DNA from: Escherichia phage Ec1-ASingh
Sequence record: PQ561393
Direction: 5' to 3' (one strand)
Length of the DNA stretch: 61,135 nucleotides
Under the pieces are notes generated by a model, which ran no database searches, had not been told where the DNA came from, and saw only the letters and a list, made by a program, of their open reading frames with translations. Below are positions 6,988 through 23,335 of this stretch, piece by piece (position 1 is the first letter of the stretch; each line of letters begins with the position of its first letter). A program made the translations under genes and the position numbers.

Positions 6988-9234
6988 ATGCCACCTGCAA
7001 TAATTGCCGGAGCAATTGCGATAGGCGCCTCTGCCGCTTATGCTGCCGGATATATCGCATTAACAACAGCCCTTATTATTTCAACGGCCGCAACGGTTGC
7101 GGGAGCCCTGCTAACGAAAGTTTCTGTGCCTTCGTTAGGTAACTATACATCGCAGCAGGACAGAAAACAAGTATTGCGATCGTCGGCAGCACCAAAGAAC
7201 TATATTTACGGTAAGACTAAAATGTCTGGCGTAATGTTCTTTGCTGAAGAACAAGCTGGTGATCAAACGGATAAAGAATGGCTTCATATTGCCATCGCTG
7301 TTTGTGCCCATGAAGTGAATGCTATATTGGCTGTTTATTTAGGCGACGACGATATCAGCACCTACGGTGAATATGCACAATATCAAGTCCACAATAACTC
7401 GACCGATGTGTCTGATATGCTTTCGCGAGCACCGTCATGGAAGCCCGATATGATTGGCCAGGGCATCTGCTGGGTACGTCTGTCTCTTAAATTCAATCAG
7501 GAGAAATTCCCTTCTGGTTTACCGAATATTACTTTCCTTGTTGAAGGTAAGAAAGTTTACGACCCGAGATCTGGTCTAACTCAATATTCCAATAACGCCG
7601 CTTTATGCATTCTTGATTACTACCGCGATTATCTGAAAGTACCAGATTCAGAATTATTAATGGAAGAATTTATCGAAGCGGCTAATCTTTGTGATGAAAC
7701 CATCAACGGCAACTCCTATTCGGAACCTCGTTATACAATCAATGGGGTTTTCGATGCGTCGGAAGCTGTTTCGTCAACATTGGATGATCTTCATTTATGT
7801 TGTGCTGGTGAACCGACTTACATTGGCGGTAAACACGGCCTGTTAGTTGGTGCTTATTACGGCCCCGCTACTATGGTGCTGGACGAAAGTCAGATTGTTG
7901 AGGATATAAAGATCGTTCCTGAGACTCCATGGAACGAACGTATTAACATCGTACAAGGCACTTTCATTGATCCCGAGCAAGGTTACACGGAGGTTGATTA
8001 CCCTGCTGTAAAAGTTGATGCTTATATCATTGAAGATGGTGCTGAGTTCACAACGGATCAAAAATACCGCTTTGTTACTTCAGAGTTTCAAGCCCAGCGA
8101 CTTGCCCAGATAGCGATAAACCGCAAGCGCCTGGGGCGCACGATGGATATATCCTTAAACTTTGCGGGCTACCCTTATCGTCCAGGGCGGTATGTTAAAA
8201 TCAATATACCACAGCTAGGCATTGCTATGCAGGAATTCCGCGTCACTAAATGGGCGTTGAATCCTAATGGTACAGGTATCAAAATCACGGTTCGCCAAGA
8301 AAACGCTGACGTCTGGGGCGACGCTGTTGGTAAACCTATTGACAGACCAGACCTGACAAACTTACCAGGCCCGAACGTACCAGCACCCACGAACATTCAA
8401 TTTGTTCCTGTCGCATCGAATGCTGAAGTTAACTATCAAGGTGAGTTATCGTGGGTTAACCCCACTATTGTCGACTTTACACAGATCATTATTCAGGGTA
8501 ACGGTAAGACGATTGTTAGCCAACAGTCAACTGAAACTAAAATTCAGATTAATGGATTAGATCGGGGTGTCACCTATACGGCATATTTGCGTAACTCCGC
8601 TAAGGCTGGAATCCTAAGTAATGTAGCTACATTGCAATTCGTCTTAGCCATTGACTCAAAGTATTATGGTGACATTTACGCAAACAACGGTTATTTTAAA
8701 GGGATTATTTACGCGAACAATATTGTCGGCGATGTTTACAACAAAATGTCGGGTGGAATACCGTATGTGAACGTATCGGACGACTACGGAAACGGGTTCC
8801 CGTGGGCATCTAGTGCAGGTGAGCACGTGATATGGTCCATACCTGGAGAGGAGTTCGATAGAACCATGGACTCCAATCTATACCTAACATTAACCTCATC
8901 GGAGCGGCAATATTTCACTGTGGTAATGCGAGCGCCTGGACTGCCGGATCAACAGGTAGCCTATATCGACACAGGAAACGACGGGTCTAATTCCCCCGCA
9001 GTAGTACAGCTCAACGGGGTGACTGTTCCAGCGACTGACAGGGACACTCCTTGCCAGCTAGTGTGTGTGGTTGGGACAAACAGGTCGTCTGGGGCATCAT
9101 TCTACACACCGTTGGCAGTGCAAACATTGAAAGAGAATTCTTCCGGTGCTAAAGATTTAGTTGGGCGTACAGTTCGTGAAGTTCCGTGGGTGGCCCTGTA
9201 TAAAAAAGGCCGTACTCCTGTAATACCTGTGTAA
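6988..9234 (+). CDS. Tail tip / host-specificity protein (I/J-like) with fibronectin III-like segment
   Basis: 748 aa; hydrophobic N-terminus typical of tail assembly I-like proteins; position after gpK-like gene. Confidence 0.5.
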   Translation: MPPAIIAGAIAIGASAAYAAGYIALTTALIISTAATVAGALLTKVSVPSLGNYTSQQDRKQVLRSSAAPKNYIYGKTKMSGVMFFAEEQAGDQTDKEWLHIAIAVCAHEVNAILAVYLGDDDISTYGEYAQYQVHNNSTDVSDMLSRAPSWKPDMIGQGICWVRLSLKFNQEKFPSGLPNITFLVEGKKVYDPRSGLTQYSNNAALCILDYYRDYLKVPDSELLMEEFIEAANLCDETINGNSYSEPRYTINGVFDASEAVSSTLDDLHLCCAGEPTYIGGKHGLLVGAYYGPATMVLDESQIVEDIKIVPETPWNERINIVQGTFIDPEQGYTEVDYPAVKVDAYIIEDGAEFTTDQKYRFVTSEFQAQRLAQIAINRKRLGRTMDISLNFAGYPYRPGRYVKINIPQLGIAMQEFRVTKWALNPNGTGIKITVRQENADVWGDAVGKPIDRPDLTNLPGPNVPAPTNIQFVPVASNAEVNYQGELSWVNPTIVDFTQIIIQGNGKTIVSQQSTETKIQINGLDRGVTYTAYLRNSAKAGILSNVATLQFVLAIDSKYYGDIYANNGYFKGIIYANNIVGDVYNKMSGGIPYVNVSDDYGNGFPWASSAGEHVIWSIPGEEFDRTMDSNLYLTLTSSERQYFTVVMRAPGLPDQQVAYIDTGNDGSNSPAVVQLNGVTVPATDRDTPCQLVCVVGTNRSSGASFYTPLAVQTLKENSSGAKDLVGRTVREVPWVALYKKGRTPVIPV

Positions 9235-16351: not shown

Positions 16352-17340
16352 AACTTGAACCCCGCTATTACCCCGCGCATGTTCTCGCCGTAGAAGATGA
16401 TCGGGGTGTTCATGTTTCGTTCGTCCATCACGTTGTACCGTGATGCGTCCCACTCTGTTGCAATACCTTTAAGCTGCAATAAAAGGTCTATATTGTAAAC
16501 CCCGACTGTCTGATACTCTTTAAACATAGCAGAAGCACCATCCAGCTCAACAAAGTGGGTTCTCGCCAGTGCGTTCTCGATGTATACCTTACCCATCTTG
16601 TCCGCGAACGGTTTGATCTTTTCGAGACAATTAAATAGTTCGCCGTCAATGGGGTACAGCGACTGACCCTTTTCCGTGCGTTCAATGATCGAATCAATGT
16701 TAGGCCACTCCAGAGCTAAGAGCTGGGTACGCAACCAACAGCCGTCCGCATAATGGAACGTCATGCTGTTTTTCGCCGCGCTAATATGCGTAGGCGCTTT
16801 TTTAATGCGCAGAAGCTCTTTAATTGCCATACGAGGAACAACGCAGTCCACAGGGAACACAGCACCGAACCAGTATTGCACGATACTAGCGTTATTGGTT
16901 GCGTACATGCTGCCCGCTTTCACCAGTACGCCGCAAGACCATGGGCGGGACGCATCGTCGCTTATAAACGGCTGTACGCGCTCTAAACCGCCGAGGAACG
17001 CTTCGCCGTTAATTGGGTAGGTTTCACCTTCAGGTTCTACGTGTACAGTGGGCCCGGTTAAGGTGTCCACGCTCACTTTAAACCCTCCAGACTTAATGTT
17101 CAATTTTCCGTTGGCCAGCATAGTCATCTGTACAGCGTCATCACACGCAGCGATAGCTTTAAGCATCGGTTCTGCTTTTGGTGTACAGTCAATCTGGAGG
17201 CCAATAGGTGCGCAGAGTGCAATCGTACCGTTAAACCCGCGAACGTATCCATTCTCGATACGGAAGTGGGTGAGCCCCTCCTGGAGCTCTTTACGGGCGA
17301 TCGAACCCTGCACGAAACGCAGTGCGCCTAGTAAGTCCAT
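16348..17340 (-). CDS. Sliding-clamp-like protein (beta-clamp-like), putative processivity factor
   Basis: 330 aa; pattern similarity to DnaN segments (..SDDASRPWSCGVLV....ATNNASIV..); adjacent to polymerase. Confidence 0.4.
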   Translation of the reverse strand: MDLLGALRFVQGSIARKELQEGLTHFRIENGYVRGFNGTIALCAPIGLQIDCTPKAEPMLKAIAACDDAVQMTMLANGKLNIKSGGFKVSVDTLTGPTVHVEPEGETYPINGEAFLGGLERVQPFISDDASRPWSCGVLVKAGSMYATNNASIVQYWFGAVFPVDCVVPRMAIKELLRIKKAPTHISAAKNSMTFHYADGCWLRTQLLALEWPNIDSIIERTEKGQSLYPIDGELFNCLEKIKPFADKMGKVYIENALARTHFVELDGASAMFKEYQTVGVYNIDLLLQLKGIATEWDASRYNVMDERNMNTPIIFYGENMRGVIAGFKL

Positions 17341-17789
17341 TATTTCACCTCCAGTCGAGCTGGGATAATAAGATCCACTGACCAGCTTGTCAATTCAACT
17401 TCGTTTGGAAGAGTGGGTTCACCCCATACATAATATTTCTTTAAAGGCCATCCCCTTATTGGGTCGAGAATACGGATGTTTCCCTCGAACGTTGATAGCG
17501 CAAGGATAGCGTGAGTCCCACCTTTCATATTAAGTGACGGCGTTGTCAAGATAAAAATCGCATCCCCAAATATTGTATTTTTTCGAGGGTGGCCGTAGCT
17601 GTATGGAATTTTGTATTCGTCCAGAATATCATCATACCACTCGCCTTTATCTCTTTTATAATACAGGCGCTCATGAAACTCATTATAGGCTTGATCCGCG
17701 GACAATCCAACAATCATCCCCATACAAGTAGCCATGCAAGAGTCGGGGGTTGGTTGCATTAAATGCTGCATCATCATTACCTCAATCAA
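17340..17789 (-). CDS. Peptidase C39-like cysteine peptidase domain protein
   Basis: QPTPDSCMATCMGMIVG (Q-x5-C-x3-C-LAM-like) and later HAILAL..ILDP, matching the C39 Gln/Cys/His/Asp arrangement; paralog of 48133..48594. Confidence 0.5.
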   Translation of the reverse strand: MIEVMMMQHLMQPTPDSCMATCMGMIVGLSADQAYNEFHERLYYKRDKGEWYDDILDEYKIPYSYGHPRKNTIFGDAIFILTTPSLNMKGGTHAILALSTFEGNIRILDPIRGWPLKKYYVWGEPTLPNEVELTSWSVDLIIPARLEVK

Positions 17790-18693
17790 ACAAATCGTGG
17801 AGACGCTCGTTGAACCGACCGTTGTGGTTAGCGAGTATCATAGCGTTGACCACACCGTAGGCCCACAGATTAAACGCTGCGCGGCTTTCATATATGGTTG
17901 ACAGGCGCTCGTAAGTGAAACCGTTCTCTTCTAAATATCGGAGAACGTTGTTTTGTTCTGTTTCTGAAAGATTACAAATATGCTGCCCTTGGGCGTGCCT
18001 TGAAGGAGATTTTTCAGAGACCTGCATTGGTCCCCATTTAGGTGTTTCAATAGCGCCGAAAGCGGCTGACTGAATCCAAGAGGATGAGTCGCATGAATAC
18101 CACGGATATCGTTCCATAAGCGGGCGGGAAGTAATCCCAAATCCATGCACTTTGATTTTAGCTCGCCCGCTTCCGTCCACCAAATGTTTATCCCACACTC
18201 TGTCCAACCAAACCTGGAGTTGCTGGGTACTTGCCCCAACCAATCCTCCAAGAGTGATGTAATCGTAATTGGCGACGTAGTGGTCGAGGTACTCGAAGGG
18301 TTCGTTGGCGTGGAAGCAGGGGAGGGGACGCACTCCGCGTAACTCCATCTCTTGCTGGTTTCGCCAAGTCTGTAAGGGGTCTCCGATTCCATCGAGGACT
18401 GACGCCATAAGGTTTCCGTCTTCAACCCGAATAATGTCTCTGTTCCGCTCGATATAGGCGCAGTATTCTTTAACTGAGAGTGTAACTCCGAGGGTAAAAG
18501 CAGAGAATGCTCCGGAATCGAGAAATATTCTTGCCTTGTCCGCTCGCATTGCATCAACATAGGATTGTTGCCCAACGTAGTGCCAGGACTCGAGAATATT
18601 TGGGATATTGCGCACGAGATTTTGTTCATGCTCGGTAAGTTTGACATAACGGTTCATCCCAGGCTTGTAACTGTTTGTGTAAACAGCGGCCAT
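17782..18693 (-). CDS. dpdA: DpdA-like DNA-guanine transglycosylase (TGT family)
   Basis: TGT-like FLDSGAF motif and (beta/alpha)-barrel-like pattern; start at ATG 18693 because a terminator hairpin lies inside the longer ORF-track version. Confidence 0.6.
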   Translation of the reverse strand: MAAVYTNSYKPGMNRYVKLTEHEQNLVRNIPNILESWHYVGQQSYVDAMRADKARIFLDSGAFSAFTLGVTLSVKEYCAYIERNRDIIRVEDGNLMASVLDGIGDPLQTWRNQQEMELRGVRPLPCFHANEPFEYLDHYVANYDYITLGGLVGASTQQLQVWLDRVWDKHLVDGSGRAKIKVHGFGITSRPLMERYPWYSCDSSSWIQSAAFGAIETPKWGPMQVSEKSPSRHAQGQHICNLSETEQNNVLRYLEENGFTYERLSTIYESRAAFNLWAYGVVNAMILANHNGRFNERLHDLFD

Positions 18694-18734
18694 ATAAATT
18701 TGGAAGGTATAATCACATTCAGCTTTGTACACTT

Positions 18735-18772
18735 TTCGCTCCAAACAAAATAAGCGCCCGTAGGCGCTTATT
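18735..18772 (-). terminator. Terminator between folE and dpdA
   Basis: Hairpin aataagcgcc-cgta-ggcgcttatt with U-rich run on minus transcript. Confidence 0.4.
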
Positions 18773-18905
18773 ATAGTACGTTGTGTTATTTGATTGCTAC
18801 ATGAAGCACAGTAACAGAGCGACAAGACTCCACACTGCAATCCAAGTGACCTTTCCACAACGATACGCAGGATTAATAGTCGTGTACTCCACAACGTATT
18901 TCATA

Positions 18906-19526
18906 TTAAGCCTTATGGCACAATGCCAGGAACTCTGCGCGGGTCTGCGGCTCGTCCTTTATCGCACCGCGGAGAGCAGTCGTAACAGTGTGGTGACCAT
19001 GCTGACAAACTCCGCGAGACTCCATACACATGTGACGAGCTGTGATGTAAACACCCACACCAACAGGCTCGAGATGTTCTTGGATTGCATCTGCGATATT
19101 GTTGGTAAGCCGTTCCTGAACCTGTAAACGTCGAGCAAAGGCATCAACAACACGATTGAGCTTACTAAGACCAACAATGCGGCCGGACGGAATGTAGGCA
19201 ACAGTAGCGTGGCCAAAAATGTCGGCCATGTGATGCTCACATTTACTATAGAAAGGAATACGCACAACCGCAACCATCTGGTCGGCACCTTCTGCTCCAT
19301 CTTCGAACACCTTAAAGAGCCCAGGGATATCCACGGCGTAACCGCCAAACCAGTGTTCAAACGCTTTCGCAACACGGGTTGGCGTTTCAAGCAAGCCCGG
19401 GCGCAGTGGGGCATCGCTATCGCCAGATTCAATAATGCCCAGGATCTCTCCCATACGGTCAGCGATCTGGACTCGGCACAGCTCGAGTTGAGTACGTTCC
19501 ATCATTTCGTGTATCCTACATGGCAT
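18906..19526 (-). CDS. folE: GTP cyclohydrolase I
   Basis: CEHH zinc motif, ATVAYIP..GLSKLNRVV..FARRLQVQERLT, HxC..RG; near colinear with bacterial FolE. Confidence 0.9.
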   Translation of the reverse strand: MPCRIHEMMERTQLELCRVQIADRMGEILGIIESGDSDAPLRPGLLETPTRVAKAFEHWFGGYAVDIPGLFKVFEDGAEGADQMVAVVRIPFYSKCEHHMADIFGHATVAYIPSGRIVGLSKLNRVVDAFARRLQVQERLTNNIADAIQEHLEPVGVGVYITARHMCMESRGVCQHGHHTVTTALRGAIKDEPQTRAEFLALCHKA

Positions 19527-20026
19527 TTGGAAGTTTCTTCAATGGTGCATTTTACAAGCTCTACACCGTGTTCGTCCAGCAGGCGCGGGCCGATAACTTC
19601 GACCATATATGCAGCCAGGTTTTCAGCAGTCGGGTTAAACGGCAGCGATACCAAAGAATCGAAGAAATGGATTTCGTCTTTTGCTTCGATAAAGCCGGGG
19701 CGGTTGGAATCTTCAATCAAGCTGGCAATACCGGCTATCAGTTTGTCTTGTTCCCAATGCAGGAAGCGGTGATCCCAATTGGTTTCCAGCCACTCACAGA
19801 GAGTAGACTTAACCACACTGAAATCAATCACGCGGCCAATATTGTCCAGAGCAGCGGATCCAACTTCGTATTCTTTTGCAAGGGACTTGATTTGACCATC
19901 CAACTTCGGTGCAACGTGGAAGTGGAAGACGTAGTTGTGCCCGTGCAGGTGGCGGCACTTACTTTCATGGCCAACTACACGGTGGCCAGCGCAAATTTCA
20001 TGCGAACGGATTACTTCATAGCTCAT
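19502..20026 (-). CDS. queD: 6-carboxy-5,6,7,8-tetrahydropterin synthase
   Basis: CxxHxxxxH...CxxLHGH motif (ICAGHRVVGHESKCRHLHGH), NPTAENLA, C-terminal ETSKC; start set at ATG 20026 with RBS. Confidence 0.8.
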   Translation of the reverse strand: MSYEVIRSHEICAGHRVVGHESKCRHLHGHNYVFHFHVAPKLDGQIKSLAKEYEVGSAALDNIGRVIDFSVVKSTLCEWLETNWDHRFLHWEQDKLIAGIASLIEDSNRPGFIEAKDEIHFFDSLVSLPFNPTAENLAAYMVEVIGPRLLDEHGVELVKCTIEETSKCHVGYTK

Positions 20027-20463
20027 TAGAATTTCTCCGCGTGTTTGTCGTACGCATCGTTGATTAATTTGGTAAAACAATCGTTGTGCTCGCTCCAGAT
20101 TGTCTGCCCCATGCTTTTAGCAACAAGATGATAGGAATTTGTTGCATCGTCTTGAAATACACTAACGACTACATCTGACCCGTTCTGAACGTAACCAATT
20201 AGGGCTCTAAACTTCTCGAAGACGCCTTTTTCTTTAGGATCTCCAGCCAGACGTGACAGCAGTGACTTGACAGTGGGCTCGTATTCGGGCCAGTCCTGCT
20301 CGATAAAAATACCTTCAACTTGCTGTTTCCCGTCAGCTTTTCGACCGTCAGCGACTGCGTTTGCAAGATCTTCGAGTTGCTCTTGCTGGTCACGGGTAAG
20401 GTACTTTTTCACATCCTTTAACTTAAAAGTCAGATAGCGGTGTTCGAAACGTTTATCCTTCAT
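20026..20463 (-). CDS. Hypothetical protein within 7-deazaguanine module
   Basis: 145 aa from ATG 20463; no recognisable motif. Confidence 0.4.
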   Translation of the reverse strand: MKDKRFEHRYLTFKLKDVKKYLTRDQQEQLEDLANAVADGRKADGKQQVEGIFIEQDWPEYEPTVKSLLSRLAGDPKEKGVFEKFRALIGYVQNGSDVVVSVFQDDATNSYHLVAKSMGQTIWSEHNDCFTKLINDAYDKHAEKF

Positions 20464-20725
20464 TTTCTGCCTGCTCCATAAATTCACGGTACTTGCGAAC
20501 GCACTCGTCTTTACTACGGGACGCAAAACAGCGCCAGCCGTTGTCCAGCTTGTACGACCAGTAAAAGGCACCAAAGCGGTTCTTCATTTGCTTAGTTACG
20601 CAGACGCTCTGCTTCAGCATCGGGTTCTGAGACTTAATAAACGCAGCACGTTCAGATTGTGACAGCATTTCATATGCCTCCCGTTGCATGTTAGCATACA
20701 TCATTTCACGGAAATTCATCTTCAT
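20453..20725 (-). CDS. Hypothetical protein within 7-deazaguanine module
   Basis: 90 aa ORF. Confidence 0.4.
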   Translation of the reverse strand: MKMNFREMMYANMQREAYEMLSQSERAAFIKSQNPMLKQSVCVTKQMKNRFGAFYWSYKLDNGWRCFASRSKDECVRKYREFMEQAENEG

Positions 20726-20759
20726 AAGAAGCTCCTGGACGTCCCTGTCCGGTTGTTAG

Positions 20760-22190
20760 TTATTGTTCATCCAGATAGTTAATTACCTCTGGCGCGTTAT
20801 TAATACTAAACGCAGTCCGTCGCATCATGCAAGGGCCACACGTACCGCAATGCAGGTCGCCGTTCTTATAACAGCTCCACGTATGGGCCAACGGTGCTCC
20901 CTGCTCGAGCCCCAGGGCCACGATCTCGTGCTTCATTAAGTTACCCACAGGCATGAGCACCCGCACGCGCTTACCGTCGCCTACAGCGAACGGTAATAAC
21001 GCATTAAAGCGGTTAATGAACTCGGGTTCGTTATCGGGGTAGGCGCCCGCTTCTTCCAGGTTATTACCCAGCACGATGTAGTCAAACCCTTTCGCTTCTG
21101 CGTAGGCAGTGGCGACAGACAGCATAACCAGATTACGAGCAGGAACCCACTCATGAGCGAATTCCGCGCCCGCTTCTCCGCCTGCAATTGTTGCAGTGTG
21201 GTCAAACAGGGGACTATCTGATGGGTCGTAAATGGGAATCGGGAAAAGGACAAGTGGCACCCCCATCGCTTCAGAAATTTCTTTAATTGCTTTCAGCTCA
21301 TGCTCTTCAGCACGGCAGCCGTATTGGAAGTTAATAAGGGTTACTTCCATGCCCTGATTTTTGCACACCTGCGCGGCAACGGTGCTATCCAGGCCCCCAC
21401 TAGCAACGACCAGCGCCCGCGGAGTTTTCTTCTCGTCTAGAAAAAAGCCCCGTCGGTCCAGATCTGTGGAGTGCCCACACACCATGTTACAGGTATACGG
21501 TTCTTGCATCTGAGGTACGCAGTTATGCGGCAGCATGGACGCTTCGCTCGCTAACCACACACCAGAATCGTTCTTCCCAATCCAGATCGGGCGGTAGTTA
21601 CACGCAGTGAAAATAAATCCAGGCGCGTCTTCGTGTGTTGCCAGAATTGCGTAACTCCCTTTCAGGCGCGAAATAGCTTCCACGAAAATGTCATAGATCT
21701 GGTGGTGGAGCAACGGTTCTTCCGGTTCCGGAGTTAGCTCGCACAGCAGTTCAACGATCGCAGCACTATCAATTTCACTTTGGTGAGGTCTCGGTCTGGT
21801 GCGCGAACGCAGTTCTTTATCGTTTGCGATAGTACCGTTGTGAACGATAGCCCACGGGCCGAGTGCATACGGTTGCTGGTCATACCCGTTCTTTTCTTTC
21901 ACCCATTCGGTAGTCGGTTCAGCGCGTGCATTACCGATGAGGGTTACAGGGCAACGGTGAAGCGTGGCGTGTTGGACGATGTCCTGCATGGTGCAGTTAT
22001 GCAGGTAGGACCCAGCTTTTTCCGTTGTCATACACTGATACGAAACGTAAGGTTTTGGCAGGTGCGTAATTCGCGCGCCAATACCGTCGCGCCCGCGGTT
22101 GATAGCACCGCGTACCATGTCGTCAGCCATAACGCGCAAACGATCTTTATCGACAATGCCGTTAGTTACAAATCCAAAGATTGAGCACAT
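20760..22190 (-). CDS. queC: Gat-QueC: class-II glutamine amidotransferase fused to QueC (7-cyano-7-deazaguanine synthase-like)
   Basis: N-terminal MCSIFG (Ntn Cys nucleophile, as in AsnB); C-terminal SGGLDS PP-loop, VPARN, YPD, CYxxxxxHCGxCxxC zinc motif as in QueC. Confidence 0.85.
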   Translation of the reverse strand: MCSIFGFVTNGIVDKDRLRVMADDMVRGAINRGRDGIGARITHLPKPYVSYQCMTTEKAGSYLHNCTMQDIVQHATLHRCPVTLIGNARAEPTTEWVKEKNGYDQQPYALGPWAIVHNGTIANDKELRSRTRPRPHQSEIDSAAIVELLCELTPEPEEPLLHHQIYDIFVEAISRLKGSYAILATHEDAPGFIFTACNYRPIWIGKNDSGVWLASEASMLPHNCVPQMQEPYTCNMVCGHSTDLDRRGFFLDEKKTPRALVVASGGLDSTVAAQVCKNQGMEVTLINFQYGCRAEEHELKAIKEISEAMGVPLVLFPIPIYDPSDSPLFDHTATIAGGEAGAEFAHEWVPARNLVMLSVATAYAEAKGFDYIVLGNNLEEAGAYPDNEPEFINRFNALLPFAVGDGKRVRVLMPVGNLMKHEIVALGLEQGAPLAHTWSCYKNGDLHCGTCGPCMMRRTAFSINNAPEVINYLDEQ

Positions 22191-22504
22191 AAGATATTTC
22201 CTTCAATTGGTGAATGTGGACACCATGCAATGATCCCGTTAGATGGCGGAGTCACTGACGTGTTGTAGGTTATTTTAACACGGGCGCTGCTGACATCTGT
22301 GTTGATTATTACAGTACCGTCCTGCAGAAGTAAATCAACACCATAACCCGCACGCAATACAGCCAGCAAGCCTTTTACGGATATATCCTGCATGGGCATT
22401 GATCTGCTGTGAAATCTACAGACAACCTCGTTATATCCCTCTGGGCGTACCGGAAACACCTCTTTGAGGATATCAACTCGAGTTTTTGGGGCTGGTGTGA
22501 ACAT
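22166..22504 (-). CDS. Hypothetical protein within 7-deazaguanine module
   Basis: 112 aa ORF between queE and gat-queC. Confidence 0.4.
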   Translation of the reverse strand: MFTPAPKTRVDILKEVFPVRPEGYNEVVCRFHSRSMPMQDISVKGLLAVLRAGYGVDLLLQDGTVIINTDVSSARVKITYNTSVTPPSNGIIAWCPHSPIEGNILCAQSLDL

Positions 22505-23205
22505 TATTCCACCTCTAAATATTTGTGGACCTGTAATTGCACAATATACCCGTGGAGCTGGCAGGAAGCAACTACCGCCTGGATGTTGCGCTTGTTAGCG
22601 GCCGCATCTTGTTCGTCCATAGGTTGCAGGTAAATAGGGCCGCGGTAGTACGACGGCGGACGGGCGATGTGTGGTGTGGCGCGGTGCATAAGAGCCTGCA
22701 ACGGTAAACCGTCTTCCTCACGCATGTTGCCTGCCTGCAGCACGTATTTAAAGGCGTTTGCGCGGGCTGCTACGCTTGGATGAATCTTAGCTGCTTTCGG
22801 GCTGCAAACGACTGTTGCTTCATGGTGTAGCTCCAGTGGGATCTGCATTGTGCCGTTCGTTTCAATCTGAACTTTAAACCCCTTCGTATTAATCAACCAG
22901 TTAATCAGGTTAACCACTTCGGGTTGGCGGAAAGGTTCACCGCCGGTAATAACAATCAAACTGGTTTTAGCGTCACCGCGCTTCGCACGTACCTCGTCCA
23001 GGATTTGATGGTGCATCATGCGCTGGCGCCCTTCAGTGTACTCGGTGTCACAACCAGGGCACTGAAGGTTACAACCTGCTAAACGGATGAATACTGCCGG
23101 GTGACCACAATAAGGGCCTTCGCCTTGTATCGTGTGAAAAATGGAGTGGACATCCAAATGATAGCCGCGATCAATTTTCTCAGGTTCCTGAGTATTTAGT
23201 TTCAT
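22504..23205 (-). CDS. queE: 7-carboxy-7-deazaguanine synthase (radical SAM)
   Basis: IQGEG...PAVFIRLAGCNLQCPGCDT matches QueE Cx14CxxC-type cluster motif; start at ATG 23205 (a terminator hairpin lies inside the longer ORF-track version); alternative start 23268. Confidence 0.8.
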   Translation of the reverse strand: MKLNTQEPEKIDRGYHLDVHSIFHTIQGEGPYCGHPAVFIRLAGCNLQCPGCDTEYTEGRQRMMHHQILDEVRAKRGDAKTSLIVITGGEPFRQPEVVNLINWLINTKGFKVQIETNGTMQIPLELHHEATVVCSPKAAKIHPSVAARANAFKYVLQAGNMREEDGLPLQALMHRATPHIARPPSYYRGPIYLQPMDEQDAAANKRNIQAVVASCQLHGYIVQLQVHKYLEVE

Positions 23206-23279
23206 AGTATGTTCTCGATTGATGATGCGTAACGCTTGAAGGTATGACAAATGAAGGATAGCGGACATAAGAACCTCGG

Positions 23280-23312
23280 GGTAAAGATAACAAAGGGGTC
23301 GTAAGACCCCTT
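23280..23312 (-). terminator. Rho-independent terminator
   Basis: Hairpin aaggggtc-gtaa-gacccctt (same stem as terminator at 1194) followed by U-rich run on minus transcript. Confidence 0.5.
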
Positions 23313-23335
23313 CTGAGTTGCCGAGTTTGTACTGA

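Follow-up and report, generated by a model that had tools for sequence, protein, structure and literature searches.

Enterobacteria phage 9g (Nonagvirus, Queuovirinae) carries a well-studied system by which part of the guanine in phage DNA is exchanged for the 7-deazaguanine derivative 2'-deoxyarchaeosine (dG+). The 9g genes folE, queD and queE complement the matching Escherichia coli mutants, and 9g DpdA alone inserts 2'-deoxy-preQ0 (dPreQ0) into plasmid DNA (PMC6884629). Together with Gat-QueC, a QueC protein fused to a glutamine amidotransferase (GAT) domain, 9g DpdA brings dG+ to 9-18% of G in plasmids in E. coli and confers EcoRI resistance, even in a queC deletion; the tRNA enzyme tRNA-guanine transglycosylase (TGT) is not required for the system, nor can 9g DpdA substitute for it (PMC6884629). 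In virion DNA of 9g, dG+ makes up ~25% of G, whereas phage CAjan, which has a plain QueC, carries dPreQ0 (PMC10516641). Vid5, a further phage with Gat-QueC, contains dG+ at 7.55% of G as measured by liquid chromatography-tandem mass spectrometry (LC-MS/MS) (PMC8306585). In infection assays, phages of the genera Nonagvirus and Seuratvirus withstand restriction-modification systems of types I and II (BASEL preprint). Here we describe a cluster of five related genes in Escherichia phage Ec1-ASingh (sequence record PQ561393), of which the whole stretch of 61,135 nucleotides was analysed and is referred to as the window. By analogy with 9g, we consider it very likely that this cluster encodes a 9g (Nonagvirus)-type pathway which hypermodifies the phage DNA with 7-deazaguanine, the product most likely being dG+.

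The five genes are the following.

queE, 22504..23268, minus strand: radical S-adenosylmethionine (radical-SAM) 7-carboxy-7-deazaguanine synthase, 254 aa from ATG 23268 (233 aa from ATG 23205)
gat-queC, 20760..22190, minus strand: class-II glutamine amidotransferase (N-terminal) plus QueC, 476 aa, predicted preQ0 and archaeosine synthase
queD, 19502..20026, minus strand: 6-carboxytetrahydropterin synthase, 174 aa
folE, 18906..19526, minus strand: GTP cyclohydrolase I, 206 aa, with an alternative start at 19505 that overlaps the queD stop codon
dpdA, 17782..18732, minus strand: phage DNA-guanine transglycosylase (DpdA1 type), 316 aa with GTG 18732 as start (303 aa from ATG 18693)

The cluster occupies ~17782-23268 on the minus strand, within the replication module. 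Read along that strand, the order is queE, orfX3, gat-queC, orfX2, orfX1, queD, folE, a hairpin and dpdA, and downstream of dpdA follow a 149-aa open reading frame (ORF), the sliding clamp and the DNA polymerase; the small ORFs and the hairpin are described further below. The succession of helicase, queE, gat-queC, queD, folE, dpdA, clamp and polymerase is that of 9g, the Nonagvirus FritzHoffmann and the Klebsiella phage vB_Kpn2-P2, and five genes co-linear in the replication module of a siphophage of ~56-64 kb, as found here, mark the Queuovirinae type. An earlier note on this DNA, made from the sequence alone, had proposed a module of FolE, QueD, QueE, Gat-QueC and DpdA at 17782-23205. All five genes are present at or near these positions, with family matches far beyond chance. 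The span itself needs a small correction, as the likely starts lie slightly outside the limits given (DpdA at 18732 instead of 18693, QueE at 23268 instead of 23205), and three further ORFs within it (20026..20466, 20453..20725 and 22166..22504) had gone unmentioned. In the PHROGs database all five genes fall in the expected phage families (E 1e-49 to 4e-216), and all ORFs of the cluster are intact and keep their catalytic motifs. The identity to 9g at third codon positions is 36-46% across all cluster genes. Together with the conservation of the amino-acid sequences this indicates long-term purifying selection over a long divergence, dpdA included. The genes and their motifs, the fold of DpdA (see below) and the orthology and synteny with 9g are the points established here.

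The likeness to 9g and the other Nonagvirus phages covers all five enzymes, their order and orientation, the slot between the helicase and the clamp and DNA polymerase genes, and the hairpin between folE and dpdA. The four biosynthetic enzymes of the phage studied here are only 61-70% identical to those of 9g; orfX1, orfX2 and the 149-aa ORF are lacking in 9g, which carries the 253-aa gp07 in the place of the 112-aa orfX3. The genome is not a Nonagvirus by nucleotide sequence, and its nearest relatives infect Klebsiella. Gat-QueC is also present in Pantoea phage vB_PagS_Vid5 (Vidquintavirus), whose DpdA is ~74% identical; the Vid5 paper reports a preQ0/preQ1 transporter gene in the cluster, whereas none was seen among the ORFs of the present cluster. 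FolE, QueD, QueE and a DpdA of ~68-69% identity also occur in Seuratvirus (CAjan, Seurat) and in Pseudomonas phage iggy. These phages differ by a stand-alone QueC without GAT domain, which is 29% identical to the QueC domain found here, and by dPreQ0 as their product. Taken together, the cluster is an ordinary copy of the 9g-type dG+ system, and its composition, order and motifs do not depart from what is known. It differs in minor ways only, namely by small ORFs specific to its lineage, by a GAT domain that evolves fast and by the already divergent phage DpdA1.

Concerning the enzymes that would supply the modified base, the earlier note had claimed four preQ0-pathway enzymes with catalytic motifs, and these hold up: CEHH, CRHLHGH, CNLQCPGC and SGGLDS are all intact. 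FolE matches PF01227 with 210.5 bits, TIGR00063 with 191.8 bits (cut-off 181.6) and NF006825 with 204.7 bits (cut-off 174); it has CEHH at residues 96-99 and HMC at 165 and is 61% identical to 9g FolE. QueD reaches 74.5 bits on PF01242 (PTPS; cut-off 22.4), carries the motif CRHLHGH at residue 24 and shares 66% identity with its 9g counterpart. QueE scores 37.7 bits on PF04055 (cut-off 29.5) and matches the 'QueE-like' family phrog_2076 (1e-61). It shows the radical-SAM signature CX3CX2C as CNLQCPGC as well as TIQGEG, is 70% identical to 9g QueE, and its five best NCBIfam matches, at 61-93 bits, are all QueE models. Translation of queE probably starts at ATG 23268, which is preceded by GAGG 5 nt upstream and gives the 254 aa annotated in both 9g and vB_Kpn2-P2; ATG 23205 is a possible alternative.

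Gat-QueC combines two domains in one chain. The full length is covered by phrog_10428 (4e-216), the QueC part by PF06508 (188.4 bits) and TIGR00364 (150.5 bits, cut-off 150.3; 9g QueC, run as a control, scores 150.1 bits), and the amidotransferase part by PF13537 GATase_7 (31.1 bits, cut-off 25). The hallmarks of an N-terminal nucleophile (Ntn) amidotransferase, namely Cys2, MCSIFG, RGRDG, HNGTIAN and IDSAA, are all conserved with 9g. So are, in the QueC half, the PP-loop SGGLDS at residue 264 and the C-terminal, zinc-binding-type Cys cluster CYKNGDLHCGTCGPC, with the spacing C-x7-C-x2-C-x2-C. The fusion of QueC to an N-terminal class-II amidotransferase beginning with MCSIFG had been recognised correctly, as the GATase_7 match and the full set of hallmark motifs confirm. 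Its association with archaeosine-type (G+) formation agrees with published work, since both co-expression of the 9g proteins and LC-MS/MS of Vid5 give dG+ (PMC6884629, PMC8306585). The same two-domain architecture is found in archaea, and phage and archaeal Gat-QueC fall in one cluster of published sequence networks (PMC6884629); the archaeal protein differs in being an archaeosine synthase on preQ0-tRNA that works with the archaeal TGT (arcTGT).

Over all 476 residues Gat-QueC is 63% identical to its 9g counterpart, with 47-50% in the GAT half versus 76-86% in the QueC half. Towards the nearest relative vB_Kpn2-P2, the GAT half (residues ~20-175) shows 75-77% identity, as compared to 96-99% for the QueC half and most neighbouring genes. 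Judged from these alignments, the patch in the GAT domain appears to be a local rapid divergence or recombination that left the catalytic motifs untouched. Such fast divergence could reflect an arms race with host enzymes that recognise 7-deazaguanine DNA, a reading that we think improbable.

DpdA is the enzyme expected to act on the DNA itself. It belongs to phrog_887 (2e-94) and is 92% identical to 9g DpdA, while the DpdAs of iggy and of phages in the CAjan/Seurat group show 68-69% identity; 5635 relatives were found among 1.8 billion representative proteins. From a diverse 80-sequence alignment of the relatives retrieved in this representative search, an AlphaFold model with a predicted local distance difference test (pLDDT) score of 96.7 was built. 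A first prediction, made from a shallow alignment of homologues 71-91% identical, had reached a pLDDT of 64 with a disordered C-terminal third and was not used. The predicted fold is a TIM-barrel of the TGT type. Foldseek searches with the model returned TGTs at all of the top 12 ranks; in structure, it is the DNA-specific DpdA that matches most closely, and the tRNA TGTs come after it. When the DpdA family profile was compared with the PDB sequences, 7ui4, the DpdA of the bacterial Dpd system of Salmonella Montevideo, came out best, albeit weakly (E 0.12); a search with the single sequence found no TGT among the PDB sequences and only chance matches to Tdp1 (E 0.22). The profile alignment places D72-S-G-A-F76 on Asp95...Phe99 of 7ui4, and S-C-D215-S on Asp256. 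In 7ui4, Asp95 (general acid/base) and Asp256 (nucleophile) are essential by mutagenesis (PMC10164549). Within the 80-sequence alignment D215 is invariant and D72 is conserved in at least 90%. We therefore find in phage DpdA a putative catalytic Asp pair and a base-stacking Phe, whose equivalence to the bacterial residues rests on the weak profile alignment plus the fold match. The assignment of DpdA to the TGT family, made in the earlier note, thus stands by structure and by homology to 9g, but not by a match to a TGT sequence model.

The bacterial enzyme is otherwise distant. It is 18% identical, is larger (413 residues as compared to 316 here), keeps the zinc site of TGTs (PMC10164549), needs the ATPase DpdB and is part of a restriction-modification island. 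As to the remainder of the bacterial Dpd system (DpdB, DpdC, DpdD-K), a PADLOC scan of six proteins of the cluster gave no match to any Dpd model, and the neighbouring genes are replication genes.

For dpdA, GTG 18732 is the probable start codon: it is preceded by GGAG at 6 nt, and both 9g and FritzHoffmann conserve the 13 residues that this start adds, YTFQIY among them. A longer, TTG-initiated ORF (to 18894) was rejected, as it passes through a strong hairpin and T-tract at 18749..18772. A recent horizontal transfer of dpdA, considered in view of its 92% identity to 9g versus 61-76% for the neighbouring genes, was rejected as well. The third-codon identity of dpdA is 46%, like that of its neighbours, so the high protein identity reflects purifying selection.

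On these grounds the following pathway can be proposed. FolE would convert GTP to dihydroneopterin triphosphate, from which QueD would form 6-carboxytetrahydropterin and radical-SAM QueE 7-carboxy-7-deazaguanine; the QueC half of Gat-QueC would then yield preQ0 (7-cyano-7-deazaguanine). After replication, DpdA would swap selected guanines of the duplex phage DNA for the 7-deazaguanine base, presumably through a double displacement like that of TGT, in which Asp215 would be the nucleophile and Asp72 the general acid/base. Before or after insertion, the GAT half would supply ammonia for the conversion of the nitrile to a formamidine, and the end product would be dG+. DNA modified in this way should be protected from many restriction enzymes of types I and II. 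We infer what the enzymes do, which modified base is formed and at what level, which motif is targeted, and that restriction is prevented. Our confidence is greater that some 7-deazaguanine is present in the DNA than that it is specifically dG+.

Target motifs of DpdA1 enzymes are known only for CAjan (GA, GGC, GGT) and iggy (GA) (PMC10484667). Of all G in the present genome, 23.4% stand in GA and 5.8% in GGC; a CAjan- or iggy-like motif (GA with or without GGC) would therefore cap the modification near 23-29% of G. A side observation concerns restriction sites. The twelve most under-represented palindromic hexamers (AAGCTT, GTGCAC, CTGCAG, GGTACC, CAGCTG, GCATGC, ATGCAT, GCGCGC, AGTACT, GCTAGC, CGTACG and CCATGG) all lack GA. 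GGTACC, GTGCAC and AGTACT have zero sites in the window, while palindromes containing GA are near expectation. This trend goes in the direction expected for a GA target but is weak (p 0.087 by Mann-Whitney test over all palindromic hexamers and 0.025 over those containing G, uncorrected for multiple tests), and it fits an avoidance of those sites that GA-directed modification would leave unprotected.

Several points weigh against this pathway. QueD remains under the NCBIfam equivalog cut-off (61.5 bits versus 89.25 on TIGR03367), and the QueE models are all under theirs (61-93 bits versus 200-300). DpdA has no match in Pfam, including TGT PF01702, or in NCBIfam at E up to 1, nor in PADLOC. Furthermore, DpdA contains no CxCxxC zinc motif, the site that bacterial DpdA retains; it has five Cys in total, and no Cys is conserved across the 80-sequence family alignment. 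The GAT half is the fastest-diverging part of the system, which makes its activity appear the least secure step. Levels vary widely among related phages (7.5% in Vid5, 25% in 9g), so the predicted extent is loose. Finally, base modification is a prediction for this phage and for both Klebsiella relatives.

To judge the missed thresholds, the five experimentally tested 9g proteins were run through identical HMM (hidden Markov model) libraries as a control. 9g QueD scores 63.1 on TIGR03367, likewise under the cut-off, 9g QueE reaches 93.1 bits versus a cut-off of 200, and the experimentally active 9g DpdA is likewise without any model match. As the 9g proteins miss the same models with the same scores, the curated models evidently do not reach this phage clade, and the TGT and DpdA models do not reach the DpdA1 subfamily. 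Since validated 9g proteins fall below the thresholds too, the missed thresholds are uninformative on function. The earlier note had suggested HMM searches as a check and had named failure at family-level thresholds as a result that would count against the module. FolE, PTPS, Radical_SAM, QueC and GATase pass the Pfam thresholds and TGT does not for DpdA; formally, failure applies to DpdA and to the equivalog models of QueD and QueE, and it carries no information, for the validated 9g proteins fail alike. On the whole, the interpretation given in the earlier note is supported, the modification itself being a prediction.

Among other explanations, the one that survives best holds that the cluster does modify DNA, with dPreQ0 or another derivative, e.g. 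dADG (the deoxynucleoside of 7-amido-7-deazaguanine), as main product, the GAT half being weak, changed or host-limited. The much faster divergence of this half speaks for it (47-50% versus 76-86% for the QueC half to 9g, ~75% versus 98-99% to the nearest relative), as do the insertion of dPreQ0 by 9g DpdA alone (PMC6884629) and the mixtures of derivatives carried by several phages (PMC6884629, PMC8306585). However, all Ntn-amidotransferase hallmark motifs are conserved with 9g, GATase_7 is above the Pfam cut-off, and both Gat-QueC phages that were measured, 9g and Vid5, carry dG+ with dPreQ0 in traces only (PMC6884629, PMC8306585). We regard this product as unlikely, and dG+ as the expected one.

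Much less probable still is a role in RNA or in the nucleotide pool, by which the genes would serve a tRNA modification of the queuosine or archaeosine type, or preQ0 supply, with the TGT-like protein acting on tRNA. The enzymes do derive from the tRNA queuosine/archaeosine pathway, and database annotation calls the DpdA-type protein a 'queuine tRNA-ribosyltransferase'. Yet the best structural match of DpdA is the DNA enzyme, ahead of the tRNA TGTs, and no tRNA-TGT sequence model matches it. The 92%-identical 9g DpdA did not complement an E. coli tgt deletion and inserted preQ0 in DNA (PMC6884629), and the window encodes no tRNA.

That the cluster is an inactive remnant, one or more steps being lost and the DNA either unmodified or wholly reliant on host preQ0, is highly improbable: some DpdA-encoding phages do show no modification, e.g. 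Mycobacterium phage Orion (PMC8306585), but here every ORF is intact with its catalytic motifs, strong amino-acid conservation alongside saturated synonymous positions indicates purifying selection, and the cluster is kept in both close relatives with 86-99% protein identity.

The remaining features of the region are four small ORFs and two hairpins.

orfX1, 20026..20466, minus strand: 146 aa from ATG; phrog_7810, phrog_4330 and phrog_7432 (all families of unknown function)
orfX2, 20453..20725, minus strand: 90 aa, nearly confined to Queuovirinae-type phages
orfX3, 22166..22504, minus strand: 112 aa, overlapping with the queE end on one side and with the gat-queC start on the other
149-aa ORF, 17340..17789, minus strand: between dpdA and the clamp gene; phrog_4049 (E 3e-38)
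terminator-like hairpin, 18749..18772, minus strand: AATAAGCGCC-TACG-GGCGCTTATT followed by a T-rich tail; GC-rich, between folE and dpdA
terminator-like hairpin, 23292..23313, minus strand: upstream of queE, from the consensus scan only

A search of orfX1 against Pfam gave no family. Its N-terminal domain of ~75 aa is present in 466 records, which come from enterobacterial phages of unrelated types, many having genomes of ~80-290 kb, and by this distribution appears to be a widespread mobile small domain that is not pathway-specific. With FritzHoffmann bas20_0030 orfX1 shares 58% identity over 81 aa. It is probably an accessory gene outside the pathway.

orfX2 has no family match in Pfam or PHROGs. 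By tblastn it was found in 11 phage records, including the two Klebsiella relatives and two Nonagvirus phages (87-88% aa identity). Other records are six E. coli phages at 42-44%, among them the Seuratvirus VogelGryff, and Klebsiella phage KpTDp1, where 63% of the query aligns at 44%. 9g lacks orfX2, and in FritzHoffmann, the one phage for which the position was compared, the counterpart follows directly after gat-queC. In the same two Nonagvirus phages orfX2 is more conserved than the flanking Gat-QueC (87-88% versus ~66%). orfX2 is the main candidate among the small ORFs for an unrecognised accessory factor, which might for instance tune DpdA targeting or amidation or counter host enzymes directed at 7-deazaguanine DNA, such as the recently described glycosylases of the Dag type; we think such a role improbable.

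orfX3, without family match in Pfam, NCBIfam and PHROGs, was found only in the two Klebsiella relatives. Its similarity to the N-terminal part of gp07, the 9g protein encoded in the same slot, is weak (34% identity over 68 aa). The 149-aa ORF is 99% conserved in vB_Kpn2-P2, where it is unannotated, and is absent from 9g. Assignment of orfX1-3 or the 149-aa ORF to QueF, ArcS, DpdL/M/N or the YhhQ transporter was rejected, as no Pfam or NCBIfam match was obtained at E up to 1.

The sequence of the hairpin between folE and dpdA is the same in 9g, where it lies in the same place (~7625..7650), though the flanking folE is only ~60% identical. As a possible terminator or attenuator, this hairpin may separate dpdA from the biosynthetic genes. 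The hairpin at 23292..23313 may mark the start of the transcription unit. In the scan for promoter and terminator consensus sequences, sites in the region were not above shuffled expectation, and weight was given only to the hairpin conserved in 9g.

The phage is a siphophage of ~61 kb with a G+C content of 49.6%. Its sequence appears to be that of a complete genome, with the break placed arbitrarily, as ORFs reach both ends; the window has no tRNA genes. The nearest relatives are the unclassified Klebsiella phages vB_Kpn2-P2 and vB_Kpn_K9PH25C2, with 91-93% identity across ~80% of the first 25 kb. Both retain the cluster, with protein identities of 86-99%. Nonagvirus phages share only short megablast patches with the window. 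From these nucleotide comparisons, the phage probably represents a distinct species within a Queuovirinae-like genus.

With the present findings, the phages for which archaeosine in the DNA is predicted come to include a lineage associated with Klebsiella. If the prediction is true, the DNA would resist many restriction enzymes, with consequences for the cloning of this phage, its restriction mapping and its nanopore basecalling, and the modification may widen the range of hosts when the phage is used in therapy. A recent preprint reports glycosylases of the host that attack DNA containing 7-deazaguanine, the DNA of 9g among it (bioRxiv 10.1101/2025.10.29.685425). By carrying the modified base, the phage would also become a target for defences that recognise 7-deazaguanine.

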